From a virus (Duplodnaviria > Caudoviricetes): a stretch of 60,992 nucleotides of DNA. The translations under genes and the position numbers were made by a program. Shown in pieces: positions 1 through 60,116 of the stretch. Location of the stretch: positions 1 through 60,992 of IMG/VR virus record IMGVR_UViG_3300030202_000714. One strand, given 5' to 3'. The stretch's first letter is position 1. Each line of letters starts with the position of its first letter. Under the pieces are notes generated by a model. That model had not been told where the DNA came from and made no database searches. It saw only the letters and a program-made list of their open reading frames with translations.

Positions 1-351
1 GAAGTCATATTCCATATCAGACCATAAATGAGGTTCTATCCACACACCACCACCTGATGTCATTTCACTAATAGCTCTTTCAGACCATTCAGCGTAGTCT
101 TCATACTGATAACCATCTTGTGATACATAAGGTCTCTCATCATGAGTACACCAGTATATATCATAGCTATCAGCTGTTGATTCACTGTATATTTTTAGTA
201 TATGGTTCTTATCACACCAGTCAGTTGTATTATCTAGGTTTCCGCCATATTCTGATTCGATGTACTCGATCAGCCAATTAGCATCTGGTTCCTGCATTAT
301 TCCATCGCTCTCAAGAGCTTCAATAATAATATCATCTGTTAGTAACTCCAT
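1..351 (-). CDS. Highly acidic early protein, partial (runs off the left edge); DNA-mimic candidate
   Basis: Manual translation from ATG at 351: MELLTDDIIIEALESDG...WSDMEYDF, open to the window edge; about 29 D/E versus 4 K/R in 117 aa. Confidence 0.75.
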   Translation of the reverse strand, partial: MELLTDDIIIEALESDGIMQEPDANWLIEYIESEYGGNLDNTTDWCDKNHILKIYSESTADSYDIYWCTHDERPYVSQDGYQYEDYAEWSERAISEMTSGGGVWIEPHLWSDMEYDF

Positions 352-590
352 TATTCTTCGATTAGCATTCTGCCACCGTACATAATGTCTTTGGCTGTTA
401 CATCACTTGTATAAAGACCTGCGTAGGACAATAGGGCACTAACATCAGATACTGATAGTTCATGCCATAATACACTACTCATGAGTTTATACTTTAATCT
501 TTTAGCGCTGTCATATTTTCTAGCACTAGCTTGCAACTCTGATTTAAGACTAGGTTGCAGTAAGTCGTAGATTGATTTCATTTTACTCAT
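351..590 (-). CDS. Hypothetical early protein
   Basis: 79-aa ORF just downstream of motif copy 619-650, with A-rich leader AACAATTAAATATAATAACA. Confidence 0.75.
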   Translation of the reverse strand: MSKMKSIYDLLQPSLKSELQASARKYDSAKRLKYKLMSSVLWHELSVSDVSALLSYAGLYTSDVTAKDIMYGGRMLIEE

Positions 591-618
591 TGTTATTATA
601 TTTAATTGTTTGTATATA

Positions 619-650
619 TATTATCCGACTATTGTCGTATTTAATTTGTA
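619..650 (-). promoter_or_regulatory. Early promoter-like motif, copy 1 (TACAA-N6-TAC-N10-GGATAATA)
   Basis: Reverse complement TACAA ATTAAA TAC GACAATAGTC GGATAATA; spacing identical in all six copies. Confidence 0.8.
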
Positions 651-700
651 TTGAGGACGTGGCGGGAGTCGAACCCGCACCTTAGTACCGTAGCACGTCC
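651..700 (-). ncRNA. Mini tRNA-like element (acceptor stem plus T arm, no anticodon arm)
   Basis: Reverse complement GGACGTG-CTACGGTACTAAGGT-GCGGG-TTCGACT-CCCGC-CACGTCC-TCAA: perfect 7-bp acceptor-like stem, 5-bp T stem, TTCGA loop. Confidence 0.7.
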
Positions 701-775
701 ATAACCTCTCTTGTTTTCATCACAAGGCCTACTGTGTATTCCCGAGAGGCGCCACCATGGGATTCCCTGGTTAGC

Positions 776-1018
776 TTAGTTATATATTTTATTAGACTTA
801 CATACCATCCACTCGCAGTTAGTAGGCTTATGTCCTTTTAAAGTCATTAAGTCTTCATAGTCTTCGCATTGTAGATCTGCTCGTCTAATATTGTACATGA
901 ATACTCTGCCTAATTCAAAGTCTAGTATCCATAGATAATTTCTTGCGTCAGAGTTTTCTATTACCTCTAATCTTTCTTCGTCTTGCATTTCATGCCATTT
1001 CTTTACTGAATCACTCAT
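776..1018 (-). CDS. Hypothetical early protein
   Basis: 80-aa ORF within a tightly packed minus-strand run. Confidence 0.7.
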   Translation of the reverse strand: MSDSVKKWHEMQDEERLEVIENSDARNYLWILDFELGRVFMYNIRRADLQCEDYEDLMTLKGHKPTNCEWMVCKSNKIYN

Positions 1019-1229
1019 CGTAATATTTATTAGTTGTTACATCTAGTTTGTTAGCGATGTGGCGAGCGACCAGTCTCATAAGATAACTATGAGTGTCGTT
1101 TGTAAGTGGGGACTCAGCATCTTTAGGTAGAAACTGACCGACTTGCCAATCACTTTGTTTGTATATTTCTTCTATTATATCTGTAGCTATTTCTTCTGCT
1201 ACTATATTCATTTGTTTTATTACTGCCAT
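1011..1229 (-). CDS. Hypothetical early protein
   Basis: 72-aa ORF overlapping the next gene by 8 nt. Confidence 0.7.
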   Translation of the reverse strand: MAVIKQMNIVAEEIATDIIEEIYKQSDWQVGQFLPKDAESPLTNDTHSYLMRLVARHIANKLDVTTNKYYDE

Positions 1230-1233
1230 ATTA

Positions 1234-1446
1234 TTATCTTAAGCATGTTCCATAACCTCTACGAGCGCCAAGCTTTCTTACACGTTTCGCCTGTTCTTTC
1301 GGCATAATTTGTATAGTGTTACCGGTTTTATGGTATGTAAGGGATATACAGCCATAAGGTTCTACTGTGCTACAGTCGACGCAAGAGGTGTACCCAAGTG
1401 CGAGGCGCTGCGGAGGTATTATATTTTTACATTTACATTTTGTCAT
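1234..1446 (-). CDS. Small zinc-finger protein (DksA/TraR C4-type-like)
   Basis: CKC...IPPQRLALGYTSCVDC resembles the C4 finger pattern IPxxRL...CxxC. Confidence 0.6.
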   Translation of the reverse strand: MTKCKCKNIIPPQRLALGYTSCVDCSTVEPYGCISLTYHKTGNTIQIMPKEQAKRVRKLGARRGYGTCLR

Positions 1447-1453
1447 ACAATTA

Positions 1454-1485
1454 TATTATCCAACTGTATTTGTATTTTGTTTGTA
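1454..1485 (-). promoter_or_regulatory. Early promoter-like motif, copy 2
   Basis: Reverse complement TACAA ACAAAA TAC AAATACAGTT GGATAATA; contains the stop codon of 1456..1917. Confidence 0.8.
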
Positions 1486-1917
1486 ATTCTTTAGATAGTA
1501 TTCTAACATATAGTTTAATCTAGCAAGACCTGAATAGATTCTAGCTCTTGATATAGTATTATATGTTTTAGTTACTGTCTTATTTCCTTCTAAAAATACC
1601 CACTTTTTCTTTCTTTTATATGTAGGATTTAGTTGATAAGGTGAGTAGCAACCATTTTGTTTTCTAACATAACCTGTTTTGAAACACGCTAATCTTAATT
1701 TAGGAAACTGATTTGGATTTACTCTTCCATACCTTGTTTTAGGTGCTAGCGAAGATACAGGAAACTCAAATTCTCTTGTACCATTGATCGCTTGTCTTTG
1801 CGTAGTTACTTCTTTAATATTGTATTTAATAAGCAATTGTCTCGCAAAAGCGTCTTCTAACATTTGCTTTTCTTGTTGCCAAGTATATTTATACTCGCCG
1901 TTTTCTAGTATTCTCAT
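1456..1917 (-). CDS. Hypothetical basic early protein
   Basis: 153-aa ORF. Confidence 0.75.
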   Translation of the reverse strand: MRILENGEYKYTWQQEKQMLEDAFARQLLIKYNIKEVTTQRQAINGTREFEFPVSSLAPKTRYGRVNPNQFPKLRLACFKTGYVRKQNGCYSPYQLNPTYKRKKKWVFLEGNKTVTKTYNTISRARIYSGLARLNYMLEYYLKNYKQNTNTVG

Positions 1918-1919
1918 AG

Positions 1920-2165
1920 TTATTTATTAAATTGTTGCATCCACTCCCAGTCTTTACCGAAAGTTTCAGGTGCATATTTGTTATATAGTTCGCATAATTC
2001 TTTTGTCCAACCACCTACTGATTTGACTTTATCTTCAATAATATCACGCTCCATTCTGCCAGATTCATAGTATCTGTTGTCATCACTCATCATATAAGTG
2101 TGGTCATGACACTCAAACATTTCTTCGAGTGATAAATCTTTAAAGTATCTTGGTTTATTCGACAT
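1920..2165 (-). CDS. Hypothetical early protein
   Basis: 81-aa ORF containing HDHTYMMSDD. Confidence 0.75.
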   Translation of the reverse strand: MSNKPRYFKDLSLEEMFECHDHTYMMSDDNRYYESGRMERDIIEDKVKSVGGWTKELCELYNKYAPETFGKDWEWMQQFNK

Positions 2166-2298
2166 AGCTAATTCCGTTTATAGTTATATATTTACGCCAC
2201 TCTTTTGCATAAGGTATTCTTTCATGTAGAACTCCATCAACTAACACGTGAGTAGGCACACCGTGTACATTATGGTTTATATATTTTATCTTTTTCAT
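2155..2298 (-). CDS. Small hypothetical protein (47 aa)
   Basis: Manual translation MKKIKYINHNVHGVPTHVLVDG...GISYVE, directly after motif copy 3. Confidence 0.6.
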   Translation of the reverse strand: MKKIKYINHNVHGVPTHVLVDGVLHERIPYAKEWRKYITINGISYVE

Positions 2299-2303
2299 AT
2301 TAT

Positions 2304-2335
2304 TATTATCCAACTATTTTTGTATTTAAATTGTA
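2304..2335 (-). promoter_or_regulatory. Early promoter-like motif, copy 3
   Basis: Reverse complement TACAA TTTAAA TAC AAAAATAGTT GGATAATA. Confidence 0.8.
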
Positions 2336-2437
2336 ATTTCTATTAAATCTATTAAACCACTCATCTTCAATCATCATTATTTGTTGACGAGTAAGTTTAA
2401 TAATCTTCTTACTTGTATGTTTTCTATAACGTGCCAT
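2306..2437 (-). CDS. Small basic hypothetical protein (43 aa)
   Basis: MARYRKHTSKKIIK...NLNTKIVG; stop lies in the GGATAA of motif copy 3. Confidence 0.5.
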   Translation of the reverse strand: MARYRKHTSKKIIKLTRQQIMMIEDEWFNRFNRNYNLNTKIVG

Positions 2438-2567
2438 AGTAAACATCAGTATATTCTTCAACAGTTACCCACTTATTTATATCGTGTGAGTAAATCATGC
2501 CATCAATCACATGCTCATCAGCAAATGACCATAGTTTCTCGTGTGTGTGTTTTCTAGTAGTTGTCAT
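2424..2567 (-). CDS. Small hypothetical protein (47 aa)
   Basis: MTTTRKHTHEKLWSFADEHVIDG...YYGTL; overlaps both neighbours. Confidence 0.55.
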   Translation of the reverse strand: MTTTRKHTHEKLWSFADEHVIDGMIYSHDINKWVTVEEYTDVYYGTL

Positions 2568-2673
2568 AGACAAGTTGATTTACGTGAGATTTCTCTTCAC
2601 TGGTTAGTAAATTGTAGTGTTTGTTATATATTCTAAACGCTACTTTTAATTTATATGTATTTATATGTGCCAT
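2554..2673 (-). CDS. Small hypothetical protein (39 aa)
   Basis: MAHINTYKLKVAFRIY...LVYDNY. Confidence 0.5.
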   Translation of the reverse strand: MAHINTYKLKVAFRIYNKHYNLLTSEEKSHVNQLVYDNY

Positions 2674-2682
2674 AGTTTAATT

Positions 2683-2784
2683 TTAGCATGGACAAAATAT
2701 CCATAGTGAGATGTATAATATGTAGAATATTAATGCTACAAATACAAAGTTTATTATTATATCTATTATTTTATTCTTTTTCAT
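2683..2784 (-). CDS. Single-pass membrane micropeptide (33 aa)
   Basis: MKKNKIIDIIINFVFVALIFYILYISLWIFCPC; ATGA overlap with the upstream ORF. Confidence 0.5.
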   Translation of the reverse strand: MKKNKIIDIIINFVFVALIFYILYISLWIFCPC

Positions 2785-2924
2785 CTTATTAATATATTAG
2801 CAGTTGCACCTTCGAATATAATAGCATAAATCATTATTGCAATTCCAGTAAATGCTAGTGTGCCAAGTGCACCGATGAATAGTTTGATTGCTACATTAAG
2901 AGCAATGTGAGTGAATTTTCTCAT
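2781..2924 (-). CDS. Membrane micropeptide (47 aa)
   Basis: MRKFTHIALNVAIKLFIGALGTLAFTGIAIMIYAIIF...; conserved A-rich leader. Confidence 0.55.
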   Translation of the reverse strand: MRKFTHIALNVAIKLFIGALGTLAFTGIAIMIYAIIFEGATANILIR

Positions 2925-2944
2925 AGTTAATTGTATTTAATTGT

Positions 2945-2991
2945 TAGTACTAGTGTGTGTAATCGAAACGCACCTCTGCTCCAAGACTAGT
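2945..2991 (-). ncRNA. Second, more degenerate mini tRNA-like element
   Basis: Reverse complement ACTAGT-CTTGGAGCAGAG-GTGCGT-TTCGATT-ACACAC-ACTAGT-ACTA; same architecture as 651-700 with one T-stem mismatch. Confidence 0.5.
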
Positions 2992-3051
2992 TATTCAACT
3001 GTATTTATACTCGAGAGAACTTTGAACGCCGAGTGAATAAAGAATTAGTTA

Positions 3052-3279
3052 TTAAACTAACTCTTTATCTCTAAGTACTAAAGGTATATTGTTAGTAGCA
3101 GTATACGATTTGTACTTTAACCAACATGGTAGTGTAGTTAGTGTATCTTTCATTATTGAAAATACTTTGTCGTGATTGTAAGTTATCTTGTCACCTTTTT
3201 TGTTAGTGAATTCGAATGTTACATTTTTACCGATTAGTGATTGTCTTACGACAAATCTTTTAGTGATTAAGTTACTCAT
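3052..3279 (-). CDS. Hypothetical early protein
   Basis: 75-aa ORF downstream of motif copy 4, with the conserved leader. Confidence 0.8.
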   Translation of the reverse strand: MSNLITKRFVVRQSLIGKNVTFEFTNKKGDKITYNHDKVFSIMKDTLTTLPCWLKYKSYTATNNIPLVLRDKELV

Positions 3280-3316
3280 AGTTATTATATTTAATTGTTA
3301 TTATTAGTTACATTTA

Positions 3317-3348
3317 TATTATCCAAGTTGTATTGTATTGTATTTGTA
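3317..3348 (-). promoter_or_regulatory. Early promoter-like motif, copy 4
   Basis: Reverse complement TACAA ATACAA TAC AATACAACTT GGATAATA. Confidence 0.8.
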
Positions 3349-3454
3349 AAAGTAGTATGTTTGTTTATTAGTAGTTTTAATGTTAGTAGTATTCCGCACA
3401 CTCTCACAACTTCTAATTTTATAATTCATAATTATTACTTTTTACTTACATTAT

Positions 3455-3486
3455 TATTATCCATTTAGTATTGTAGTGAGTTTGTA
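3455..3486 (-). promoter_or_regulatory. Early promoter-like motif, copy 5
   Basis: Reverse complement TACAA ACTCAC TAC AATACTAAAT GGATAATA. Confidence 0.8.
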
Positions 3487-3558
3487 ATAATATGTGAAAT
3501 GTTTTTATAAAATGAATATAAGTAGATGAGCGAGGTGAGCATAATAGTTAACATGTAT

Positions 3559-3590
3559 TACAGAGTAAATACGAAAAATCAAGGATAATA
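3559..3590 (+). promoter_or_regulatory. Promoter-like motif, copy 6, divergent (rightward)
   Basis: TACAG AGTAAA TAC GAAAAATCAA GGATAATA. Confidence 0.7.
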
Positions 3591-3700
3591 AGGGTATAAG
3601 CTGGCGGGGCTAGCTAAATAAAAGGCGTTTTCCTATATGGCATGGTGGTGGAGGGGAGGGGAGCAACACAAACTATCTAATTATCTTATAATTTTTTTTA

Positions 3701-3743
3701 TGACAGTAGCCTTATAGAGTACCCTAGTAATAGGCTAGTGTCA
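3701..3743. repeat. Imperfect inverted repeat in the strand-switch region
   Basis: TGACAgTAGCCT ... AGGCTAgTGTCA. Confidence 0.6.
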
Positions 3744-3786
3744 CTATAGCTTTAAATATCACTTTTTACGTGTAATTATATTGTAT

Positions 3787-4008
3787 ATGGCAAGAGCAAA
3801 TTCACAAGGACTGAGTCCAACAGCATTAAGAGCAAAGCGAGCTAGAGATTTAGCAGCAGCTAAAACACCTAAACGTAGAGCCCGTAAAGCTGAGAACCAG
3901 AGGATAGGTCAAAAACCAGGATCTGACTTGCATCATACATCCAGTGGAACAGTAATACGCACATCGATAGCTTATAATAGAGCTACACATGATAGAGGCG
4001 AAGTATAA
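3787..4008 (+). CDS. Small basic protein, possible degenerate HNH-like
   Basis: ATG at 3787; Arg/Lys-rich N-terminus followed by DLHH...NR. Confidence 0.55.
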   Translation: MARANSQGLSPTALRAKRARDLAAAKTPKRRARKAENQRIGQKPGSDLHHTSSGTVIRTSIAYNRATHDRGEV

Positions 4009-4110
4009 TGGATTTTATACTATGTTTATTATTAGTTGTGTTAAGTTTTGTCTTCCACATGGTAGTGTATGAAGATTAACCTAATTATTAACCCTTAAAA
4101 AACCAAAATT

Positions 4111-4395
4111 ATGACGTTTTTTTATTCGACTAGAACGTGGAATAGTCAACCACAAATTACCGATGAAACCATTTCTTGGTGGAAACATTTATCTACTAAG
4201 AAAAACTGGAGAATAGTTCAGTTACCAAATGGCTTTTATCAAACCGAATACCTAGATTTAGATGAAAACTGGGTAGATGTTACAAGAAGAGAAACAATTG
4301 AATCAGCTGAGGCTGCAATTGATGGTAGCATCGAACATTACAACAAAAAGTTAGAGTTCACAAAAGGACCTAAAGTTGTAAAAACATTTAAATAG
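4111..4395 (+). CDS. Hypothetical protein
   Basis: 94-aa ORF with an A-rich leader, upstream of groEL. Confidence 0.8.
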   Translation: MTFFYSTRTWNSQPQITDETISWWKHLSTKKNWRIVQLPNGFYQTEYLDLDENWVDVTRRETIESAEAAIDGSIEHYNKKLEFTKGPKVVKTFK

Positions 4396-4417
4396 TAACT
4401 AAATAAAATATAATTTA

Positions 4418-5977
4418 ATGGAATTTAATAACCCAAGTCAATTGGTCAAGCATCTTAACTTTGGTGATGATGCTAATGACAAAATAATGAGTGGTGTAGA
4501 TCAACTAGCTAAAGCTGTTAAATCTACACTAGGTGCTTCTGGTAAATGCGTTATATATGAAGATGCAACAGGAAGACCGGTGATTACAAAAGATGGTGTA
4601 ACCGTTGCGGAAAGCGTAGTCTTATATGATCCGGTCGAAAATATAGGTGCAACACTTATAAAGGAAGCAGCTAAAAACACGGTGAAAGAAGCTGGAGACG
4701 GTACCACAACGGCTATCGTCTTAGCTGAATCACTACTAAAAGAAGTAAATAACAGCGATAATGTACGAGAAATTAAAGAAGGTATTAACTCAGGACTTGA
4801 AAAAGTTAATAAATACCTTTCTAAACACTCCAAAGCAGTATCTGGCGATAATCTTAAATACGTATCAACAATAAGTTGTAACAATGATAGTGAATTAGGT
4901 GGTATTATAGCCGATGCTTACACGAAAGTAGGTAAAGATGGTGTAGTATTGATGGAGGAAAGTGAGACGGATGAAACTTATACAGACATCGTTGAAGGTG
5001 TACAGTTAGAAAATGGCTTAACATCGCCATATTTTGCTACAGACACTGAAAAACAAAAATGTGAATTAGAAAATCCGCTAATTTTAATAGTTTCTAGTGA
5101 AATTCCTAGTGTTAGGAAGATACAAAACATACTAGAACATGTAATTAAGAATAATAGATCGCTTTTAATAGTGGCTACTGTTGCTCAGCAGGTAAAATCT
5201 GCGCTTTTAATGAATAAAGTTAAAGGTAATATAAAAGTAAACATTATAAATCCACCAGGATTTGGCCCAACTAAGCGAGATACTATAGATGATTTAGCTA
5301 TTTTAACAGGGGCTAAGGTAATAAATGAAGAATTAGGTGACGATTTGGATCTAATTCAACCAGATTGTCTTGGTGAAGCTAAATTTTCAATAACTGACGA
5401 TAAAAATACAGTTATAACTACTTATAATGTACAAGAAGACATAGAGGGTAGGGTAAAAGAGGTTAAAAAGCTCATAAAAAATGAAAAAAATGGCTTTTTA
5501 AGAAAAAAATTAGAAAATAGACTTGCTATGTTATGCGGTTCTGTTGGTATTATACGTGTTGGTGCTAATTCTAAGGTAGAATTAAAAGAAAAGAAGGATA
5601 GAGTTGAAGATGCAATATACGCAGTTAAAGCCGCTTTGCAAGAAGGTATTGTCCCAGGTGGCGGTATCGCTCTTTTAAATGCTGCAAATAACATAAAGTT
5701 TGATAATATTGGGGAGAATATACTAGCTACAGCAATTCAAGCACCATTTAAAACCATTATGGCAAATGCTGGTATTGAAAACTACGATACGCCTAAAGAT
5801 TTAGGTGTTGGGTACAATGTAATTTCCGGTAAACTAGTTGATATGGTTGACTCTGGTATCGTAGACCCCGTCTTAGTTACAAAGACAGCACTAAAAAATG
5901 CAGTTAGTGTTGCAACTACTATATTTTCTGCAGATTGTGTAATTAATAATATAAGAGTAGAAAATGCGAGCAGTTAG
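4418..5977 (+). CDS. groEL: Phage-encoded chaperonin GroEL (Cpn60)
   Basis: ITKDGVTVA, AGDGTTTA, PGFG, EGIVPGGG and GIVDP motifs; no GGM tail. Confidence 0.97.
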   Translation: MEFNNPSQLVKHLNFGDDANDKIMSGVDQLAKAVKSTLGASGKCVIYEDATGRPVITKDGVTVAESVVLYDPVENIGATLIKEAAKNTVKEAGDGTTTAIVLAESLLKEVNNSDNVREIKEGINSGLEKVNKYLSKHSKAVSGDNLKYVSTISCNNDSELGGIIADAYTKVGKDGVVLMEESETDETYTDIVEGVQLENGLTSPYFATDTEKQKCELENPLILIVSSEIPSVRKIQNILEHVIKNNRSLLIVATVAQQVKSALLMNKVKGNIKVNIINPPGFGPTKRDTIDDLAILTGAKVINEELGDDLDLIQPDCLGEAKFSITDDKNTVITTYNVQEDIEGRVKEVKKLIKNEKNGFLRKKLENRLAMLCGSVGIIRVGANSKVELKEKKDRVEDAIYAVKAALQEGIVPGGGIALLNAANNIKFDNIGENILATAIQAPFKTIMANAGIENYDTPKDLGVGYNVISGKLVDMVDSGIVDPVLVTKTALKNAVSVATTIFSADCVINNIRVENASS

Positions 5978-6230
5978 TTTATATATAGTAGTAGAAAACA
6001 TAAAGCTAAAACCTAAAACAATAGGTGGCTTAGAAATATCTGATAACATAGACAGTGACAATAGATATTTAAAAGGAAAAGTTATTAGTAAAGGTGATCT
6101 TTGTCCTCCAGATGAGGTTTTAAAAGTAGACGATATTGTCTATTATGACAAACATGCTGGCCACGAGATAACATATAATAACAAACAATACTATGTCATG
6201 ACTATTAAAGACATAGTTTTAGTAGAATGA
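5964..6230 (+). CDS. groES: Co-chaperonin GroES (Cpn10)
   Basis: KTIGGLEI mobile loop, GKVIS.G, LKVDDIVYYDKHAG; adjacent to groEL. Confidence 0.85.
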   Translation: MRAVSLYIVVENIKLKPKTIGGLEISDNIDSDNRYLKGKVISKGDLCPPDEVLKVDDIVYYDKHAGHEITYNNKQYYVMTIKDIVLVE

Positions 6231-27026: not shown

Positions 27027-29236
27027 TGTATCAGCAAAGTTTATATAGTATTATACAACCTATAAAGTTAAACACTATTAAGAGGTTGAATAAAAAAAAG
27101 GCTTGGAAATATGGTTACAATAAAGAAAATGATGTTGTTGTAATTAGTAAGACAGGACAGATAGGCGATGTGTATAGCATACAAGGTTTGAAAATAGCTT
27201 TGCCAAAAGTTCCAAAAGAAGTACACGTATTTAAGAATAATACTTGGCAGGTAACAGAATACCCTAAAGAGCTAAATAGAATTAAAACAATATTTGATTG
27301 GCGTGAGTATCCAGAGGACTTTAAAAAAAAGTATATTGGTTATATAGAAAATGAGTTTACGAAAAGAGAAAATGGTTTCTGGTTTAGTAATAATGATATA
27401 CCTACTTACATTACTGGCACACATTATATGTATCTTCAGTGGTCTAAAATTGATGTAGGACATCCAGATTTTAGAGAAGCAAATAGATTATTTTATATAT
27501 TCTGGGAAGCTTGTAAAGCTGATAATAGATGTTATGGTATGTGTTATCTTAAGAATAGACGATCTGGTTTTTCGTTTATGGCATCTGGTGAGACAGTTAA
27601 TTTAGCTACTATATCTAGTGACGCTAGATTTGGTATACTATCTAAATCTGGTCCTGATGCTAAAAAGATGTTTACAGACAAGGTAGTACCAATATCAGTT
27701 AACTATCCTTTCTTTTTTAAACCGATTCAAGATGGTATGGATCGACCTAAAACTGAGCTAGCGTATAGAGTACCAGCTAGTAAGTTAACAAGAAGAAACA
27801 TTACATCTACTGAAAACAGGCCTGAGGAATTAACAGGATTAGACACAACTATTGACTGGAAAAATACAGGTGATAATAGTTATGATGGTGAAAAATTAAA
27901 ACTGTTAGTACATGATGAGAGTGGTAAGTGGGAGAGACCAAACAATATATTAAACAACTGGCGTGTAACAAAAACTACATTAAGATTAGGTAGTAGAATT
28001 ATTGGTAAGTGTATGATGGGGTCAACATCAAATGCTTTAGATAAAGGAGGTGATAACTTTAAAAAACTATATTATGATTCAGACGTTACCAAAAGAAACC
28101 GCAATGGACAGACTAGCTCGGGATTATATAGTTTGTTCATACCTATGGAATGGAACTACGAAGGATTCATTGATTCTAATGGAATACCTGTATTCGAAAC
28201 GCCAACAGAAGAGGTTAAGGGACCATTTGGAGACTATATAGATATAGGTGTTATTGATCATTGGCAAAACGAAGCCGATGGATTAAAGAATGATCAAGAC
28301 GCATTAAATGAATTTTATAGACAATTTCCAAGAACTGAAGAACATGCTTTCAGAGATGAAACTAAAAACAGTATATTTAATTTAGTAAAAATATACGAGC
28401 AAATAGATATAAATGAAGAGGTTGCTAATTATAGTAGAGGTAATTTCCAATGGGCAGGTGGTATAAAAGATACTACTGTTAGGTTTTTACCAAATCAACA
28501 AGGTAGATTTAATATATCTTGGACCCCACCACTTCATCTACAAAATAAACAAGTAGTTAAAAACGGTTTAAAATATCCTGGTAATGAACACATGGGTGCT
28601 TTTGGTTGTGATAGCTACGATATATCAGGTACAGTTGATGGTAAAGGTTCTAAAGGAGCTTTACACGGATTAACAAAGTTTAGCATGGAAGATGCCCCTG
28701 CTAATTCTTTTTTCTTAGAGTACTTAGCTAGACCTCAGACATCCGAGATGTTCTTTGAGGACGTTCTAATGGCTTTAGTATTTTATGGGATGCCAATACT
28801 CGCTGAGAACAATAAACCTCGTCTATTGTATTATTTAAAAAGACGTGGTTATAGAGGTTATTCAATGAATAGACCTGATAAAGTTTGGAATAAATTATCT
28901 GTAGCAGAAAAAGAAGTTGGTGGAATGCCTAATTCAAGTGAAGATATTAAACAAGCTCACGCTGCTGCGATTGAAATGTATATAAATGATCATGTAGGTT
29001 TAAAAGCTGATGGTGAATATGGAGACATGGTATTTAACAACACATTAAATGATTGGGCTGGTTTTGATATAACAAGAAGAACTAAGTATGATGCAACAAT
29101 TAGTAGTGGTTTAGCTATTATGGCTTGTAATAGACATTTATACAACCCAAGATCAAATGTACAAAGAGATAAAATAAACTTAAAAATAGCTAAATATAAA
29201 AATAAAGGCTATAATTCAAAATTAATAAAACAATAA
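27026..29236 (+). CDS. terL: Terminase large subunit
   Basis: Walker A KNRRSGFS, Walker B LLVHDESGK, nuclease GCDSYD; upstream of the portal. Confidence 0.9.
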   Translation: MYQQSLYSIIQPIKLNTIKRLNKKKAWKYGYNKENDVVVISKTGQIGDVYSIQGLKIALPKVPKEVHVFKNNTWQVTEYPKELNRIKTIFDWREYPEDFKKKYIGYIENEFTKRENGFWFSNNDIPTYITGTHYMYLQWSKIDVGHPDFREANRLFYIFWEACKADNRCYGMCYLKNRRSGFSFMASGETVNLATISSDARFGILSKSGPDAKKMFTDKVVPISVNYPFFFKPIQDGMDRPKTELAYRVPASKLTRRNITSTENRPEELTGLDTTIDWKNTGDNSYDGEKLKLLVHDESGKWERPNNILNNWRVTKTTLRLGSRIIGKCMMGSTSNALDKGGDNFKKLYYDSDVTKRNRNGQTSSGLYSLFIPMEWNYEGFIDSNGIPVFETPTEEVKGPFGDYIDIGVIDHWQNEADGLKNDQDALNEFYRQFPRTEEHAFRDETKNSIFNLVKIYEQIDINEEVANYSRGNFQWAGGIKDTTVRFLPNQQGRFNISWTPPLHLQNKQVVKNGLKYPGNEHMGAFGCDSYDISGTVDGKGSKGALHGLTKFSMEDAPANSFFLEYLARPQTSEMFFEDVLMALVFYGMPILAENNKPRLLYYLKRRGYRGYSMNRPDKVWNKLSVAEKEVGGMPNSSEDIKQAHAAAIEMYINDHVGLKADGEYGDMVFNNTLNDWAGFDITRRTKYDATISSGLAIMACNRHLYNPRSNVQRDKINLKIAKYKNKGYNSKLIKQ

Positions 29237-29237
29237 T

Positions 29238-31664
29238 ATGGCTGAGTCTTACATGAGCAATTATTTTCCTAGTCAAGTTGTAAGCGACAAAGAGAAGATG
29301 TCTTTAAAATATGGTTTAAAGATAGGTAAAGCTATTGAAAGCGAGTGGTTTAAAAGAGACTCTGGCACAAATAGATTTGCTAGCAACCAAAACAACTTCC
29401 ACAAACTTAGACTTTACGCTAGGGGAGAACAAGCTATTCAAAAATATAAAGATGAATTATCAATTAACGGTGATTTATCATATCTTAATTTAGATTGGAA
29501 ACCAGTACCTATTATACCTAAATTTGTAGATATAGTAGTAAATGGCATATCAGAAAGAACTTTTGATATAAAAGCATATACACAGGATCCATATGGTGTT
29601 GATAAGAGAACTAAATATATGGAAGGTATATTAGCTGATATGAGATCTCAAGAGTTAAATGAATTTGCAGCAGAGGCTTTTGGTGTAAATTTACAATCAA
29701 GTAACGCTAACCCTTTACCTGATAACGAGGAAGAGCTACAGTTACACATGCAGTTAAATTATAAACAAGCTGTTGAAATAGCAGAAGAGCAAGCTATAAA
29801 TGTTTTATTAGATGGTAATAGATATGAGTTAGTCCGTAAAAAGGTTAACTATGATTTATGCGTTTTAGGTATAGGTTGTGTTAAAAATACTTTTAACAAA
29901 GCTGAGGGTGTTAAAGTAGAATATGTTGATCCTGCTAACGTAGTATATTCATATACTGAAGACCCGTATTTTGAGGATATATACTACTTTGGTGAGATTA
30001 AAACTCTACCTATAAACGAATTAATTAAAGAGTTTCCTCATTTAACAGAACAAGAATTAAAAAGTTTACATAACCAAGGTCATCAAACTACAGGTTTTTA
30101 TAATAGAAGTTTAGCTGAATCAGTTAATCAAGATAAAAATCAAATACAAGTTTTATATTTTAATTATAAAACTTATATGAATCAGGTTTATAAAACTAAA
30201 GAAACTTCTACAGGTGCTCACAAGGTTATAGTTAAAGATGACGAGTTTAATCCACCTACAGAATTATTAGAGGAAAGATTTGGTAAATTATCTAAACAAA
30301 TAGAAGTTTTATTTGAAGGTGCCATGGTTCTAGGTACTAAACAAATGTTAAGATGGAATTTAGCTAGCAACATGATGAGACCTAAGAGTGATTATACTAA
30401 AGTTAAAATGAATTATAGTATTGTTGCTCCTAGAATGTATAAAGGCAAAATAGAATCTTTAGTTAGTAGAATTACTACATTTGCTGATATGATTCAAATA
30501 ACACACCTTAAAATTCAACAGGTGATGTCTAGAATGGTTCCAGATGGTATATATTTAGACGCTGATGGATTAGCTGAAATAGATTTAGGTAATGGAACTA
30601 ATTATAATCCACAAGAAGCATTAAACATGTTTTTCCAAACTGGTAGTATAATTGGTAGATCATTTACATCTGATGGTGATATGAACCCAGGTAAAGTACC
30701 TATTCAAGAAATACAGAGTGGTGCTGGTGGTGCTAAATTACAGTCTCTAATACAAACGTATAACTATTATCTACAAATGATAAGAGACGTGACCGGATTA
30801 AATGAAGCAAGAGATGGTAGTATGCCAGATGCTAAAACATTAGTTGGTGTACAGAAATTAGCCGCAGCTAATAGTAACACAGCAACAAGACATATATTAC
30901 AAGCTGGTTTGTTTTTAACAACTGAATTAGCAGAATGTTTATCATTAAGAATATCTGATATACTAGAATACTCACCTACAAAAGACGCTTTTGTTCAAAA
31001 GTTAGGTAGACATAATGTTGCTACTTTAAAAGAAATGGCTGATTTACATTTATATGATTTTGGAATTTTTATAGAATTATCACCAGATGAAGAAGAAAAA
31101 GCAATGCTTGAAAATAATATTCAACAAGCACTACAACAACAAGGTATAAACCTAGAAGATGCTATTGATATTAGAGAAATAAAAAATGTTAAACTTGCAA
31201 ACCAGTTATTAAAACTAAAACGTAAGAGAAAAGCTGAAGAAGATGCAGCGGCTCAGCAAGCTAATATACAACAGCAAGCACAAGCCAATGCTCAAGCTCA
31301 GCAAGTTGCAGCTCAAGCAGAAGCACAAAAAAATCAAGTTGTAACGCAGAATCAAATGCAGTTAGAACAAACAAAGTCTCAACTTGAAACAGAAAAAATG
31401 ATTAAAGAAGCTCAGTTAAAGAAAGAGTTAATGAATCATGAATTTCAACTTAACATGCAGATAGAGCAAATGAAGGCTCAAACAGCAAAAGCAAGTGAAG
31501 ATAATAAAGAAAACCGTAAGGACGAAAGAACTAAAATCCAAGCGAGTCAACAATCTGAATTAATAGATCAAAGAAAAAGTAATAAACCACCTAAAAACTT
31601 TGAATCTTCAGGTAATGATATAATGGGTGGTGGGTTCGGCATGAATGCCTTTGAACCAAAATAA
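29238..31664 (+). CDS. Portal protein
   Basis: 808 aa after TerL; PIIPKFVDIVVNG, VTGLNEARDG, Gln-rich C-terminal helical barrel as in podovirus portals. Confidence 0.85.
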   Translation: MAESYMSNYFPSQVVSDKEKMSLKYGLKIGKAIESEWFKRDSGTNRFASNQNNFHKLRLYARGEQAIQKYKDELSINGDLSYLNLDWKPVPIIPKFVDIVVNGISERTFDIKAYTQDPYGVDKRTKYMEGILADMRSQELNEFAAEAFGVNLQSSNANPLPDNEEELQLHMQLNYKQAVEIAEEQAINVLLDGNRYELVRKKVNYDLCVLGIGCVKNTFNKAEGVKVEYVDPANVVYSYTEDPYFEDIYYFGEIKTLPINELIKEFPHLTEQELKSLHNQGHQTTGFYNRSLAESVNQDKNQIQVLYFNYKTYMNQVYKTKETSTGAHKVIVKDDEFNPPTELLEERFGKLSKQIEVLFEGAMVLGTKQMLRWNLASNMMRPKSDYTKVKMNYSIVAPRMYKGKIESLVSRITTFADMIQITHLKIQQVMSRMVPDGIYLDADGLAEIDLGNGTNYNPQEALNMFFQTGSIIGRSFTSDGDMNPGKVPIQEIQSGAGGAKLQSLIQTYNYYLQMIRDVTGLNEARDGSMPDAKTLVGVQKLAAANSNTATRHILQAGLFLTTELAECLSLRISDILEYSPTKDAFVQKLGRHNVATLKEMADLHLYDFGIFIELSPDEEEKAMLENNIQQALQQQGINLEDAIDIREIKNVKLANQLLKLKRKRKAEEDAAAQQANIQQQAQANAQAQQVAAQAEAQKNQVVTQNQMQLEQTKSQLETEKMIKEAQLKKELMNHEFQLNMQIEQMKAQTAKASEDNKENRKDERTKIQASQQSELIDQRKSNKPPKNFESSGNDIMGGGFGMNAFEPK

Positions 31665-31690
31665 TTTGTTTAATTTTATAATATTATATT

Positions 31691-32941
31691 ATGGCTAAAA
31701 AAGAAAAAGCTAAGGCGGTCGAAGAGATCGTTGAAGAAACACAAGAACAGCCTGTTGCTGAAGAGCAAAAGGTTGAGGAACCATCTAATCCTAATGAGGT
31801 TAAAGAAGATGGTACTATAAAAGTAGATTTAGATAAATGGGCTAAGGTTAGTAAAAAAGAAGATACTGATGTAGCTAAAGTTGATTTATCTGAGAAGAAA
31901 GAAGAAGAACAACCAAAAGAAGAAGTAAAAGAAGAAGTAAAAGAAGAACCTGTTGAAGAGGTTAAGGAAGAAGAAAAAACAGAAGAAGTGGTTGAAGAAA
32001 TACCAGCTGTTGAAGAAATTACTGAAATAGAGGTTGAAGAAAAAGTTGAAGAGGTTAAAGAAGCAGTTGAAGAAGCTGTTGCTGAAGCTAAAGAAACTGG
32101 TGAACCACTACCTGAAAATATACAAAAGGTAGTTGAATTCATTAATGAAACAGGAGGTACTCTTGATGATTATGTTAGATTAAATCAAGATTATGACAAG
32201 TTTGATGATAATGAACTCGTAAACGAGTACTTAAAACAAACTAAACCTCATTTAACAGATGAAGAAAGAGTTTTCGTTATGGAAGACTTGTATTCTTATA
32301 ATGAAGATGAGGACGATCCTAAAGACATTAGAAGAAAAAAACTGGCATTAAAAGAGCAAGTTGCGAATGCCAAAAGCCACTTGGACGGGCAAAAGTCCAA
32401 ATATTACGCTGAAGTCAAAGCTGGTTCAAGATTAAATCCTGAACAACAAAAAGCTGTTGACTTCTTTAATCGATATAATGAAGACGCTAAAGCTGTTGAA
32501 AAGAATAAGTCGATCTTTGAGAAAAAGTCAAATGAAGTTTTTAACAATGAATTCAAAGGTTTTGAATATAAAGTTGGTGAAAAACGTTTCAGACTTAATG
32601 TTAAAGAAGCTGATAAGGTTAAAGATAACCAAATGAACATTAACAACTTCGTGAGTAAATTTACTAATAAAGATACTCAAGTTGTTGAAGATGCCAAGGG
32701 TTATCATAAATCACTTTTTACAGCAATGAACCCTGATTTAGTTGCAAATCATTTTTATCAACAAGGTAAAGCTGATGCTATAAAAGAAAGTATGGCTAAA
32801 GCTAAAAATGTTGACATGTCTGCTAGACAAACTAACACTAACGTTATTCAGTCTGGTGGTATGAGTGTAAGAGCTATATCTGGTGATTCATCTAGTGACT
32901 TTAAAGTAAAGATTGGGAGAAATCCAAATAAAATAAGTTAA
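31691..32941 (+). CDS. Probable capsid scaffolding protein
   Basis: Extremely Glu-rich N-terminus; located between portal and major capsid gene. Confidence 0.7.
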   Translation: MAKKEKAKAVEEIVEETQEQPVAEEQKVEEPSNPNEVKEDGTIKVDLDKWAKVSKKEDTDVAKVDLSEKKEEEQPKEEVKEEVKEEPVEEVKEEEKTEEVVEEIPAVEEITEIEVEEKVEEVKEAVEEAVAEAKETGEPLPENIQKVVEFINETGGTLDDYVRLNQDYDKFDDNELVNEYLKQTKPHLTDEERVFVMEDLYSYNEDEDDPKDIRRKKLALKEQVANAKSHLDGQKSKYYAEVKAGSRLNPEQQKAVDFFNRYNEDAKAVEKNKSIFEKKSNEVFNNEFKGFEYKVGEKRFRLNVKEADKVKDNQMNINNFVSKFTNKDTQVVEDAKGYHKSLFTAMNPDLVANHFYQQGKADAIKESMAKAKNVDMSARQTNTNVIQSGGMSVRAISGDSSSDFKVKIGRNPNKIS

Positions 32942-34497: not shown

Positions 34498-34522
34498 ACA
34501 AACTTTTTAATTATATTATATC

Positions 34523-35254
34523 ATGGAAAAATACAAAGATAAATTGTATGAACTGACAGGTAGACATCAACCAATATTGAATAAAATACCATCAAGACAT
34601 ACTAGAAAAAATCCTTTAATGTGGTTTGACGAAGAAAAAGGTTACAATAGAGAATTAAGATATGCTACAAACCAAAAGTCACCATTCGTTGATGAACAAG
34701 TAGGTCCTGCAACTTTAGGACATATTGCTTTTAGAAACGGTAAACTTCACGTAGAAGGTAAACAACAAAACTTAATAAAGTTCTTAGAAAAACACCCACT
34801 AAATGGTAAGTTATTTAGAGAACATAATAAAGTTGAAATAGCAGAAGACGAATTAGATTACTTAGAATTTAAAGTAGAATCTATGAAATATGCTAAAGAA
34901 ATGGAAATAGATCAAGCTGAAGCTATTTTAAGAGTTGAAATAGGTAGTGAAGTTAGTAAGATGACTACTAAAGAAATTAGAAGAGATCTTATTGTAATGG
35001 CTGAAAGAAATCCTAAACTATTTTTAAGCTTAGTTCAAGACGATAACATTATGTTGAGAAACATAGGTATTAAAGCTACTGAAGCTGGTATATTAGAACT
35101 TACGCAAGATCAAAGAACATTTAAATGGAAATCAAATGGTAGAAAACTATTTGAAGTACCTCACGAGGAGCATCCTTATTCAGCGCTAGCCGCTTGGTTT
35201 AAAACTGATGAAGGTATGGCTGCTTTTAAAACAATTGAAAAAAGATTAAATTAA
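34523..35254 (+). CDS. Hypothetical protein (head module)
   Basis: 243-aa ORF. Confidence 0.8.
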   Translation: MEKYKDKLYELTGRHQPILNKIPSRHTRKNPLMWFDEEKGYNRELRYATNQKSPFVDEQVGPATLGHIAFRNGKLHVEGKQQNLIKFLEKHPLNGKLFREHNKVEIAEDELDYLEFKVESMKYAKEMEIDQAEAILRVEIGSEVSKMTTKEIRRDLIVMAERNPKLFLSLVQDDNIMLRNIGIKATEAGILELTQDQRTFKWKSNGRKLFEVPHEEHPYSALAAWFKTDEGMAAFKTIEKRLN

Positions 35255-43725: not shown

Positions 43726-44379
43726 ATGAAAAAATACCAAGGATCTTCACCATTAAAATTTATACCACAAGCGGCTCAAGCGGTTGGAATAGCTGCTAAA
43801 ATAGGTATGGGTTTAGCTGGTAGAAAAAAGAAAAAAGCTCAATTGAAGAACGCTCAAGGAGCATATGATATGCAAAGACAACAATTTGAAAACATGGATA
43901 CGTCTAATTTATACATGGATAAAGAAAATGTATTTGAAGATGCTACTGTAAGTACACAGGCTGCAGATTTTGCTAAAGCTCAAGCTTTACAAAGTCAATC
44001 AAACACTATGGATCAGTTTAGTCAAGCTGCAGGTGGTTCTGGTATTGCCGCTCTAGCTCAAGCAATGGCTGGTTCATCAAATCAACAAGCTCAAGCAAGT
44101 TCTGGTGATTTGAAAAAACAAGAAATAACCAACGAAAGAAATACTATGGCTGAAGCTGGTAGAATACAAGACCAACAAATAGAAGGAGAATATACAAAGA
44201 GAGATCATGAGTTAGGAAAAATAGATACTCTAATGCAATTAACTGGTCAAGAGCTTCAAGCTGCGCAAGCTGCTAAGTCAGCAAGTGATCAAATGTTAAT
44301 AGGTGGTGTTGGTGATGCATTAGGTATGGCTACTCCAAACATGGCTCAATTTTTAAAAGGTAAACCAAAAAACGTATAG
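43726..44379 (+). CDS. Probable ejection (DNA pilot) protein
   Basis: Ala/Gly/Gln-rich with a hydrophobic N-terminal segment after SPLK; first of three genes in the podovirus core-protein position. Confidence 0.6.
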   Translation: MKKYQGSSPLKFIPQAAQAVGIAAKIGMGLAGRKKKKAQLKNAQGAYDMQRQQFENMDTSNLYMDKENVFEDATVSTQAADFAKAQALQSQSNTMDQFSQAAGGSGIAALAQAMAGSSNQQAQASSGDLKKQEITNERNTMAEAGRIQDQQIEGEYTKRDHELGKIDTLMQLTGQELQAAQAAKSASDQMLIGGVGDALGMATPNMAQFLKGKPKNV

Positions 44380-44385
44380 AATATT

Positions 44386-45642
44386 ATGTATTATAATCAA
44401 CAATCAATTTACGACGCTGCTGGTGGTGGTAGATCTGTAAACGTTAAAACAGCTTTTGATATAGGTTATGAAGCAGCTACGGGAGGTAAAGGTAGTGACA
44501 ATCCAACTAGATCTGTAAAAAACTTTTATGAACAGAAGCTAGCTAACTACCTAAAAAAATTACCAGCTGATGTTGACTTAGCTGCAGTACCTAATAAGTA
44601 TAGAGGTGGTATATCTCAGTTTTTATCAAAGCAAAAACAAGCATATGTTGATGCTGCTAATAGCGTTGACGAATATGAGGTTGGTAGCGAAGATTATATG
44701 AATAGAGTTGCTATAATGAATCAAATAAAAAGTTCGTTTGAAAATTTAGATAAACAAATGAAACTTTATGGTGAAAACAAAAAAGAATTAATAGAAGATA
44801 TTGAAGGTCAACAAACTTCTATGTATGGTGAAAATCAAGCTAATGTAAATTTACTAAGAAGTATTTTTAATGAAGAACTTGATATGGTTATAGATGAAAC
44901 CGGTAACGTTAAATTTGTAGGTGATGATGGTGAGTTATCTTTAAATGACTTACCTGATTATGCTATAAAAGATTATGAAACAGCTACAGCTATGACTAAA
45001 ATGGGTGTTGATGTTTATAAAAATTCTTTAAAAACAGGACAAGTTTTAAACGTAAATAATCCCATGTATTTTCAATATCAAAACCAATTAAAAACAGCTA
45101 TTGATCAAGGTGGTACTTCAACTCTAATGTCTATACTACATGACGGCTTAGTTGGTAATGTGGTTTTAGCTGATGGTATGAAAGATCAAATTCAAGCATA
45201 TAAAGATGGTAACTTAAGTTTTAGTGAGTTAAGAGATCAAGTTGTAAATAACTACATGGACGTTTTGGTTAAACAATCACAAACAGGCGTTAGTCAAAGA
45301 AAAGTAAATCCAAGTAAGTTAAATACAGGTGGTGGTACTGGCGGTAGCTCGACTGATATTAAAAATCAAAATAAAGTAAATAAACTTACTGATGCTTGGA
45401 ATAATAAAAATATAAATGATATAGAGCTATATTTACCTACAAATTTAGAAATAAAACAATTGGGAGAAAATTTCTACATAAATGATAAGCTTATAGATCT
45501 TAATAACCCCGATTCTTTCTTTGATGTTTTAAGATATGCTAGAATTGATCCTATATACTGGCCGCAGCTTACAGAGCAAGAAAATACAGAAGAAATAAAC
45601 CAGCAAACTAACTCCAACGTTGGTGCAGCTGATAACTTTTAA
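44386..45642 (+). CDS. Probable internal virion/ejection protein
   Basis: 418-aa helical protein between the pilot-like gene and the giant gene. Confidence 0.55.
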   Translation: MYYNQQSIYDAAGGGRSVNVKTAFDIGYEAATGGKGSDNPTRSVKNFYEQKLANYLKKLPADVDLAAVPNKYRGGISQFLSKQKQAYVDAANSVDEYEVGSEDYMNRVAIMNQIKSSFENLDKQMKLYGENKKELIEDIEGQQTSMYGENQANVNLLRSIFNEELDMVIDETGNVKFVGDDGELSLNDLPDYAIKDYETATAMTKMGVDVYKNSLKTGQVLNVNNPMYFQYQNQLKTAIDQGGTSTLMSILHDGLVGNVVLADGMKDQIQAYKDGNLSFSELRDQVVNNYMDVLVKQSQTGVSQRKVNPSKLNTGGGTGGSSTDIKNQNKVNKLTDAWNNKNINDIELYLPTNLEIKQLGENFYINDKLIDLNNPDSFFDVLRYARIDPIYWPQLTEQENTEEINQQTNSNVGAADNF

Positions 45643-45652
45643 ATAAATAAAT

Positions 45653-52591: not shown

Positions 52592-52627
52592 AAACAAGTA
52601 ATATTAAAAGAATAAACCTACTTTACT

Positions 52628-53806: not shown

Positions 53807-54114
53807 TGGAAGAAAAAATGCTATCAGAAAAATCTGAAGTAAAACTTGATATAAAAACATTAATAGGTATCGTAATAGGTATTGTAACTGTAGCAGGTAT
53901 ATGGTTTGATCTAACAGCTAAAATAAGTAACATAGAAAGTACATTAGTTAGATTAGAATACAACCAAACACTAAATGATGAGTTTAGAATCAAATGGCCT
54001 CGTGGTGAAATGGGTGCATTACCTGATGACGCAAAGCAAGATTTACGAATTGAATATTTACAGAAAGATGTAGAAAAATTACAGGCAATAATTGAAGAAT
54101 TAAAAGATAAATAA
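53806..54114 (+). CDS. Single-TM coiled-coil protein (paralog 1)
   Basis: LDIKTLIGIVIGIVTVAGIWFDL followed by a coiled coil. Confidence 0.65.
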   Translation: MEEKMLSEKSEVKLDIKTLIGIVIGIVTVAGIWFDLTAKISNIESTLVRLEYNQTLNDEFRIKWPRGEMGALPDDAKQDLRIEYLQKDVEKLQAIIEELKDK

Positions 54115-54115
54115 A

Positions 54116-54397
54116 ATGGCAAAGCAAATAGGTGAAGAAACCAAGGTAACGTTAGATTTAAAAACATTAGGCACTATAGCTGTCGGTATAGCCGCTTTAG
54201 TAGGTATGTGGTTTGCTTTGCAAGCTGATATAGCTCTTGCAAAAGAACTTCCAGCGCCTGTTATTGATAGAGTAGAATATGATCTAAAAGACGAATTAAT
54301 TCGTCAGACCATAATGGATACTCAAGATGATGTAGAAGAAATAAAAGAGAGTCTAGAAAAAATAGACGAAAGATTGTACGAACTACAAAAGAAATAA
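54116..54397 (+). CDS. Single-TM coiled-coil protein (paralog 2)
   Basis: LDLKTLGTIAVGIAALVGMWFAL followed by a coiled coil. Confidence 0.65.
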   Translation: MAKQIGEETKVTLDLKTLGTIAVGIAALVGMWFALQADIALAKELPAPVIDRVEYDLKDELIRQTIMDTQDDVEEIKESLEKIDERLYELQKK

Positions 54398-54399
54398 AA

Positions 54400-56781: not shown

Positions 56782-56784
56782 ATT

Positions 56785-57003: not shown

Positions 57004-57027
57004 AAAAAGGGGCTTTCGCCCCTTTAA
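57004..57027. terminator. Bidirectional rho-independent terminator
   Basis: AAAGGGGC-TTTC-GCCCCTTT between convergent genes. Confidence 0.85.
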
Positions 57028-57029
57028 TT

Positions 57030-59971: not shown

Positions 59972-59974
59972 ATT

Positions 59975-60115: not shown

Positions 60116-60116
60116 A

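Follow-up and report, generated by a model that had tools for sequence, protein, structure and literature searches.

Promoters specific to a phage sigma factor are a known kind of element. The classes described include those of SPO1 (gp28 with gp33/34), T4 (gp55, with the late promoter TATAAATA) and coliphage phiEco32 (gp36). Such sigmas turn the host core polymerase to a phage-only consensus, and the T4 late element lies at about -13 to -6. Here we describe a tripartite motif, TACAR-N6-TAC-N10-GGATAATA, that is repeated near one end of the genome of an uncultured phage (Caudoviricetes; IMG/VR virus record IMGVR_UViG_3300030202_000714). The whole record, which is linear and 60,992 bp long, was analysed and is referred to as the window. 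Judged from its sequence and placement, the motif is probably a phage-specific promoter and not one of host type, and the best candidate for its reader is a sigma factor encoded by related phages.

Among phages of Flavobacteriia, promoters have been described for the crAss-like Cellulophaga phage phi14:2. The source (bioRxiv 10.1101/2020.03.07.982082) assigns tripartite middle promoters at g070, g075, g108 and g110 to the host polymerase and gives no common motif for the early transcripts; it also describes crAss-like phages as injecting a giant RNA polymerase that transcribes early genes. The phi14:2 middle promoters resemble the motif reported here in that they are extended and tripartite, belong to a Flavobacteriia phage with a related structural module, and in some cases lie near an ATG. 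They differ in carrying the canonical TTG...TAnnTTTG, which the present motif lacks. Moreover, phi14:2 has a virion polymerase, and we find no sign of one in the present phage.

An earlier note on this DNA, made from the letters alone, had called the motif unlike the promoter of Bacteroidota, the phylum to which the host likely belongs. Our comparison with the primary-sigma promoter of that phylum (-33 TTTG / -7 TAnnTTTG) bears this out. TAnnTTTG is absent from all six copies on both strands, TTG/TAnnTTTG matches are lacking at the gene starts of the array, and TTG-N17-22-TAnnTTTG is not enriched in the window (5 plus-strand and 8 minus-strand matches, against 3.7 per strand in shuffles). As a positive control, TTG...TAnnTTTG was recovered upstream of all four phi14:2 genes. 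A scan of the window for TTGACA-N16-18-TATAAT did not call the six sites, nor are such sites enriched (28 against 25.1). The sequence 18 bp upstream of GATAAT is ACAAAC, which is not TTGACA-like.

The motif array in the window

Six exact copies of the motif (five minus-strand, one plus-strand) lie at the coordinates the earlier note had given, with identical spacing throughout and the two TAC elements starting 11 bp apart. The exact pattern is expected 0.27 times per shuffle and reached a maximum of 2 in 100 shuffles. All six GGATAATA octamers of the window fall inside motif copies; the octamer count by itself (6, against 3.36 expected) is not significant. A weight matrix trained on 213 instances from other contigs, none from this record, found only these six sites at 8 bits or above, scoring 33.5-45.8 bits, and gave 0 matches in 20 shuffles. 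A seventh match to the pattern, at 27211 and with 2 mismatches, is probably due to chance.

The earlier note had placed each minus-strand copy just upstream of an open reading frame (ORF). Copy 1 (619..650, 41.6 bits; predicted start 613, an A) precedes the ORF at 351-590, whose ATG at 590 lies 28 nt past the motif, giving a predicted leader of 23 nt. Copy 2 (1454..1485, 45.8 bits; predicted start 1448, a G) stands 7 nt from the ATG (1446) of the ORF at 1234-1446, and the message would be nearly leaderless, with a leader of 2 nt. At copy 3 (2304..2335, 36.8 bits), the A of the ATG of the ORF at 2155-2298, 5 nt past the motif, is itself the predicted start (2298), and a leaderless message is predicted. 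Copy 4 (3317..3348, 37.2 bits; predicted start 3311, the G of TGTAA) is separated by 37 nt from the ATG (3279) of the ORF at 3052-3279, with a predicted leader of 32 nt. For copy 5, the first of the leftward array (3455..3486, 35.7 bits; predicted start 3449, the G of TGTAA), there is only a doubtful ORF of 36 amino acids (aa) on the minus strand at 3319-3429, which would have a leader of ~20 nt. ATGTAA is present 3 nt past the motif in copies 4 and 5. The leftward block of small ORFs under the array (1..3486, minus strand) continues off the left end of the record.

On the plus strand, copy 6 (3559..3590, 33.5 bits; predicted start 3596) is divergent from copy 5, with 72 bp between them. Its target would be the first plus-strand ORF, whose ATG at 3787 lies 196 nt past the motif, behind a predicted leader of 191 nt. 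A small RNA transcribed from copy 6 was considered and rejected, since the sequence at 3596-3695 folds no better than shuffles (z -0.06).

Conservation of the motif and its predicted start site

A motif search of the whole genome and its relatives, which the earlier note had proposed, returned the six sites here and revealed a family-wide element. Exact matches occur in at least 181 IMG/VR stretches, often several per contig and on one strand. Five relatives rated 94-100% complete have 6-8 matches each, on a single strand and nearly all within 3-8 kb; a reversed-pattern control gave 0 matches in these five. The lone 1-mismatch match at 33609 of one relative (G004), far from that record's cluster, is probably a chance occurrence. 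At 80 loci anchored on GroEL, with up to 2 mismatches allowed, 164 matches are divergent from GroEL and 4 co-directional, and plus-type copies in the GroEL direction, like copy 6, are rare in relatives (4 of 168 matches). In one relative (G001), the end of the record (61.9-66.4 kb; L475-L478) repeats its start (0.4-5 kb) with divergence, the repeated ORF pairs being 283/286, 206/206, 250/250 and 180/180 aa long. This end repeat may be a terminal redundancy or a product of two-strain assembly, and it raises the motif count of G001 by two.

The family consensus, from the 213 instances outside the record, is t-TACAAAcTAAATACGA-N7-t-GGATAATA-taaat-R, or in short form tTACAAAcTAAATACGA-N7-tGGATAATA-N5-R. 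Conservation extends to positions that the search pattern left free; positions 17-23 are unconserved. Natural variation marks position 1 as soft (T, C or A), likewise position 25 (G, A or C), and leaves the core ACAA-N7-TAC(G)A-N9-GATAATA. There is no inverted repeat, hairpin or palindrome within the motif. In bacterial genomes, a relaxed pattern gave isolated single matches over all phyla and in archaea (at least 121), and we see no sign of a host regulon there.

Position 38 of the motif, the sixth base past GGATAATA, is a purine in 96% of the 213 instances (A in 50%, G in 46%). Of 222 instances, 41 have an ATG exactly at this position that opens an ORF of at least 30 aa, as at copy 3; the corresponding counts are 8 for the site two bases upstream and 3 and 2 for the offsets that follow, and 24 of the 222 have no such ORF within 200 nt. 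An ATG two bases before position 38 is found in 64 further instances as a dead-end ATGTAA, which we read as the conserved tGTAA at the start site and not as a gene. Because of the purine preference and the ATG spike, we infer that transcription starts at position 38, which is 6 nt past GGATAATA and falls in the range of 5-8 nt downstream that the earlier note had predicted. If this start holds, GATAAT would occupy -12 to -7, where a sigma-70-family promoter would have its -10-like element (with A at -11, T at -7 and a purine start), GGATAATA would span -13 to -6, and the upstream block would lie at -37 to -22. Many messages are predicted to be leaderless or to have leaders of 2-35 nt.

These regularities bear on the idea that the motif is not a promoter at all and instead acts as an operator, as a repeat for replication or packaging, or as a joint at which gene cassettes recombine. 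Contigs of relatives from RNA runs break or join at motif edges (joints 547/1449 and 1486/3228), and the early ORFs between copies are poorly conserved, as such roles might lead one to expect. However, the sides of these joints are short (31-34 nt, at 90% likeness), a kind of join flagged as unreliable, and the copies are spread over 3-8 kb, not gathered in iteron-like clusters. The strict strand bias, the placement before ORFs, the spike of ATGs at one exact offset and an AT-rich, -10-like core free of hairpins and palindromes likewise speak for a promoter, and we regard a role of another kind as quite improbable.

Candidate readers of the motif

The window carries minus-strand genes at 1-3500 and 56,600-60,992 (small ORFs, a ribonucleotide reductase and a resolvase-like gene), and plus-strand genes from 3787 to about 56,240. 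The plus-strand set includes GroEL, GroES, a holin, tail fibres, TerL, portal, capsid-like proteins, an endolysin, a giant protein of 2312 aa, and a protein with a crAss muzzle C-terminal domain (PF25729, E 5e-9, in a Pfam scan of the record's proteins). By TerL, the nearest isolate is the uncultured podovirus MW202828.1 (63%), followed by Flavobacterium elemo phages and Cellulophaga phages, which are podophages (about 45%); Cellulophaga phage phi38:1 (Pervagoviridae) has GroEL in common with the record. Megablast of 1-6000 against isolate phages gave no match. Start codons lack Shine-Dalgarno sequences. The group consists of uncultured marine phages with genomes of about 60-70 kb.

Judged by synteny (G001), about 8.5 kb found in four near-complete relatives is absent between the two ends of the window, and by this measure the record is less complete than the 94% that CheckV estimates. 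In the relatives, the missing block encodes a ligase, a DNA-binding protein, a 206-aa helix-turn-helix (HTH) protein, a 250-aa sigma-70-family factor, Erf, an exonuclease, a primase-helicase, thymidylate synthase (ThyA) and MazG. The sigma gene is present in G001, G002, G003 and G005. Its product matches PF04542 (24.4 bits, cut-off 24) and PF04545 (29.2 bits, cut-off 24.1), that is, regions 2 and 4, as well as TIGR02937 (64.3 bits, cut-off 42.9) and phrog_351 (E 3.5e-25), and is conserved over 19 aligned homologues. The best solved relative is FliA (1rp3, E 1.8e-8); against the FliA/WhiG model, the protein scores far below the cut-off (55.9 against 189.6 bits). A comparison of the phage sigma with 5 Flavobacteriales genomes gave no match at E<=0.001, a search that had no positive control and so carries little weight. 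In the relatives, the sigma gene (3695-4447 in G001) stands downstream of the array and on the same strand. Among 12 close relatives (69-78% identity in the ORF at 1-351), it lies 2-6 kb beyond the homologue of that ORF in 8, and further motif copies occur between the two; the other 4 have at most 2 kb of flank. The record stops short of the site where relatives carry the sigma gene, which is why the gene is not seen in the window.

Profile searches of IMG/VR found at least 418 sigma-encoding stretches, and at least 599 stretches are TerL-related, so that this uncultured phage group is an abundant one. For 56 sigma loci, the contig extends 8 kb or more upstream of the gene; in 53 of these,.AC[AG][AG]-N20-GATAATA occurs at least twice on the strand that encodes sigma, with 326 matches there and 2 on the opposite strand. 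The remaining 3 loci, from two contigs, have 10-15 GATAATA sites with a changed upstream block. Neither the motif nor the sigma gene is present in MW202828.1, phi38:1 or elemoA (41.5 of 61.7 kb of elemoA were scanned for the motif). The co-occurrence of the motif with a sigma-like domain, another check that had been proposed, therefore stands for the separate 250-aa sigma gene and fails for the giant protein.

Two of these phages have upstream elements of their own. In MW202828.1 (L007/L008), a perfect palindrome of 16 bp, GTGTCGTTAACGACAC, occurs 14 times at 43748-55157, for the most part 15-35 nt ahead of the starts of early and replication genes, in places equivalent to those of the motif; it looks like a different, lineage-specific regulatory element. 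In elemoA (NC_055852.1, L511), AACTAAAATTTATACAYT-ATG or a close variant precedes three early genes at 28400-29505, which makes it another upstream element particular to one lineage.

The phage motif shares a -10 core with sigma-28 (FliA) promoters, whose consensus is TAAAGTTT-n11-GCCGATAA (PMC2859248, Table 1). GATAA, the core of that -10, is invariant in the phage motif, and the phage upstream block covers the site of a sigma-28-type -35. Relative to GCCGATAA, the base before GATAA is G, A or C depending on lineage, with C giving CGATAA, and the extended GC is absent. The genes under the phage motif are unrelated to flagella. No sigma of the FliA/WhiG class scored above the family cut-off in 101 Flavobacteriaceae genomes. 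Many of these genomes (G006-G110) gave two separate RpoD-like matches to the FliA/WhiG model, about 287-300 aa long at about 125-142 bits; this suggests a second primary-like sigma paralogue in Flavobacteriaceae, with a promoter preference that might bear on the early transcription of phages.

The phage sigma is the best candidate reader because the motif has the GATAA core of sigma-28 promoters, the 101 Flavobacteriaceae genomes have no FliA/WhiG sigma, and the motif and the sigma gene occur together. GATAAT (motif positions 26-31) would serve as the -10 element and the upstream block (positions 1-16) would stand in for the -35 element; host core RNA polymerase with the 250-aa phage sigma, through regions 2 and 4, would read the motif; and, once some initial transcription had taken place, the array would amplify its own sigma. 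We give about an even chance to this reading, in which the six copies would be promoters for host core polymerase carrying the phage sigma. Promoter function, start site, reader and timing of the array are all deduced here from sequence patterns.

Several observations weigh against it. With the sigma gene downstream of the array and no further promoter found for it, a sigma-dependent array would need a seed. Phage sigmas usually serve middle or late genes, and arrays of tiny genes by a divergent control region usually look early. The association of motif and sigma gene, while complete in our sample, is confounded by shared ancestry, and both may simply be clade markers. In the window itself, the family sigma hidden Markov model (HMM), run over all frames, gave nothing better than E 1.5, in ORFs other than that of the giant protein. 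Among solved structures, SigA is a match nearly equal to FliA (8.7e-8 against 1.8e-8). TAAA at motif positions 8-11 stands 14 nt from GATAA and not 18, and at the correct distance for the sigma-28 -35 of the cited table (TAAA(GTTT), 15 bp before GCCGATAA) the motif holds CAAA or AAAC. Four public RNA runs contain only short contigs of related phages, 90-99% alike, which say nothing about transcript ends, strand or expression level. Moreover, the upstream block varies between lineages in a genome-concerted manner, and the recognition helix of sigma region 4.2 does not vary with it. As to timing, early or middle use of the array is unproven, because the downstream position of the sigma gene fits both early promoters read by the host and middle promoters that amplify themselves.

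Indeed, the array might consist of early promoters read by a host holoenzyme, with the primary sigma or a second RpoD-like paralogue, while the phage sigma serves a later class on the structural strand. This would be the textbook order, with the array at the tiny genes of the divergent region, upstream of sigma, and with no other promoter visible; terminator-like sites were not found in 1-4500. On the structural strand, a second conserved element, ATTATATTRTATY, abuts an ATG and is a possible target of the sigma. The invariance of the -10 over hundreds of genomes would suit a highly conserved host reader, and many Flavobacteriaceae genomes offer two RpoD-like matches of about 287-295 aa. However, the motif lacks the TTTG/TAnnTTTG that the phi14:2 promoters, assigned to the host in the cited source, carry, its -35-like block stands 18-20 bp from the -10, and the sigma-70 scan passes the sites over. 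A host reader also sits poorly with an upstream block that changes in concert within single phage genomes and with relatives that lack the sigma gene and do not use the motif. We judge this explanation unlikely, if by no means far-fetched.

Variation in the upstream block allows for an additional factor. GATAATA is invariant across lineages, as is the segment of sigma regions 2.3-2.4. TACGA is lost in some lineages (TTACAAACAAAA...), TCGAA or ACGAA replaces TACAA in all six copies of one lineage, and one has a C-rich first block, with others showing CACAAAyTAAAT. L547, L522 and L534 keep the common region 4.2 helix, and the type of upstream block shows no clean correlation with either that helix or the 206-aa HTH protein. 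Since the changes in the block are mirrored neither in the sigma 4.2 helix nor in the presence of the HTH protein, a simple region-4 reading is weakened, leaving room for a second factor.

Host holoenzyme may, for instance, see the -10 only, with a phage activator bound to the two TACRA direct repeats replacing the -35, in the manner of T4 MotA/AsiA middle promoters and pho-box promoters. The repeats are 11 bp apart, one helical turn, in a block centred near -30, and a lineage-variable upstream block beside an invariant -10 is what such an arrangement would produce. The candidate activator is the HTH protein (PF08279, E 1.8e-4, below the Pfam cut-off), whose gene overlaps the sigma start codon in G001. 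Lineages that have the TACGA block and lineages that lack it both encode this protein, however, and L500 retains TACGA but has no such protein; no relatives of MotA or AsiA turned up in Pfam or PHROG scans. We consider an activator of this kind improbable.

The earlier note had proposed a phage-specific promoter read by a phage factor, plausibly a sigma-like domain of the giant ejection protein. A phage-specific promoter-like element, with a phage-encoded reader as the best candidate, remains from that proposal; the giant protein does not. Its gene (45653-52591, plus strand) has no recognisable polymerase or sigma features. The 2312-aa product has no Pfam family at E<=0.01, no match to the family sigma HMM at E<=10 and no solved-structure sequence match at E<=1, and DxDxD is absent. 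A relationship to phi14:2 gp66/gp67 or phi38:1 gp101 was rejected, as BLASTP found no similarity. We note a glycine-rich N-terminal segment, HExxH near residue 651 and a HAD-like DxDxT near residue 1481; the protein is 43-50% identical to homologues of the 2723-aa class in relatives.

A sigma-like domain or a polymerase in this protein, delivered with the virion, is nonetheless conceivable as the reader. The structural module is crAss-like by its muzzle domain, injected giant polymerases have the crAss-like precedent cited above, delivery with the virion would solve the timing puzzle, and about 2300 residues of the protein are without annotation. Set against this are the negative searches just listed and the phi14:2 early transcripts, for which the cited source gives no common motif, and we give the idea very little credence. 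It is likewise very doubtful, by a similar assessment, that the array is a true immediate-early set, unreadable by any host sigma, with the phage sigma or another factor injected with the virion. If true, a virion-carried sigma would parallel the RNA polymerases that crAss-like and N4-like phages inject, and this in a lineage with a crAss-like structural module that lost or never had a virion polymerase.

Adjacent elements and comparison with described promoter classes

Other elements lie close to the array. A tRNA-like minihelix on the minus strand (core 651-700, within 645-790) consists of a 7-bp acceptor stem and a T arm ending ...CACGUCCUCAA. It is part of a structured stretch of ~130 nt directly upstream of motif copy 1 (fold z-score -2.1). 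In an Rfam scan of 1-5000, the sole match was to tmRNA at 651-700 (18.1 bits, E 2e-4, below the gathering threshold), and ARAGORN found no tRNA. Close relatives conserve parts of it, once more with a motif copy immediately downstream. The divergent control region contains an inverted repeat, GACAnTAGCCTTAT...ATAGGCTAnTGTC, at 3700-3745 (plus strand), which could be an operator or an RNA hairpin; similar inverted-repeat words occur in G001 at 58830-58900 and 59390-59440. Upstream of GroEL is an ORF of 94 aa, and its ATG is immediately preceded by TTATTAACC-N5-8-AAAACCAAA (4081-4110, plus strand), a sequence conserved among relatives (28-36 of 48).

A second promoter-like element, ATTATATTRTAT(Y), occurs on the plus strand at 3771-3789, 31678-31693 and 34510-34525, where it abuts the ATG of three structural-strand genes; one copy follows a terminator after a capsid-like gene. 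It is weakly significant within the record (4 matches against 1.26 expected), and in many relatives the homologous gene is preceded by it as well. This element may represent a late, leaderless promoter class. By k-mer counts, no multi-copy late motif was detected within single genomes.

We found nothing in print on the motif itself, in a search that excludes the supplementary promoter files of the phi14:2 preprint, which may hold related logos. The new aspects are its consensus, the phylum of the host, how often starts are leaderless, and a sigma gene placed behind its own candidate promoters, an arrangement that raises the question of how infection starts. Promoters of phages of marine Bacteroidota, a phylum with its own promoter code, are almost unknown. 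The present data provide a precise consensus conserved over hundreds of genomes, with a predicted start and a candidate sigma. For metagenomic phage genomes, the consensus offers a means of annotating early regions and leaderless genes, and motif and sigma may provide an orthogonal sigma/promoter pair for Bacteroidota genetics.

Among described promoter classes, those of phage RNA polymerases fit poorly. A promoter for a T7-like single-subunit polymerase was rejected: the motif has no continuous conserved block from -17 to +6, its positions 17-23 being unconserved. The N4-type promoter for a virion polymerase, in which an inverted repeat forms a hairpin of 5-7 bp, was likewise dismissed, as the motif has no inverted repeat. 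Pfam and PHROG scans of the record and of the G001 block found no phage RNA polymerase gene. Sigma-54, extracytoplasmic function (ECF) and T7-type readings were rejected by eye on spacing or unconserved positions. The nearest kind is that of the phage sigmas of SPO1, T4 and phiEco32, from which the present system differs in several respects. Here, the sigma gene lies downstream of the candidate promoters, and these head tiny, early-looking genes. In addition, the sigma keeps region 4, the upstream block is conserved, and the inferred Bacteroidota host has an unusual promoter code of its own.

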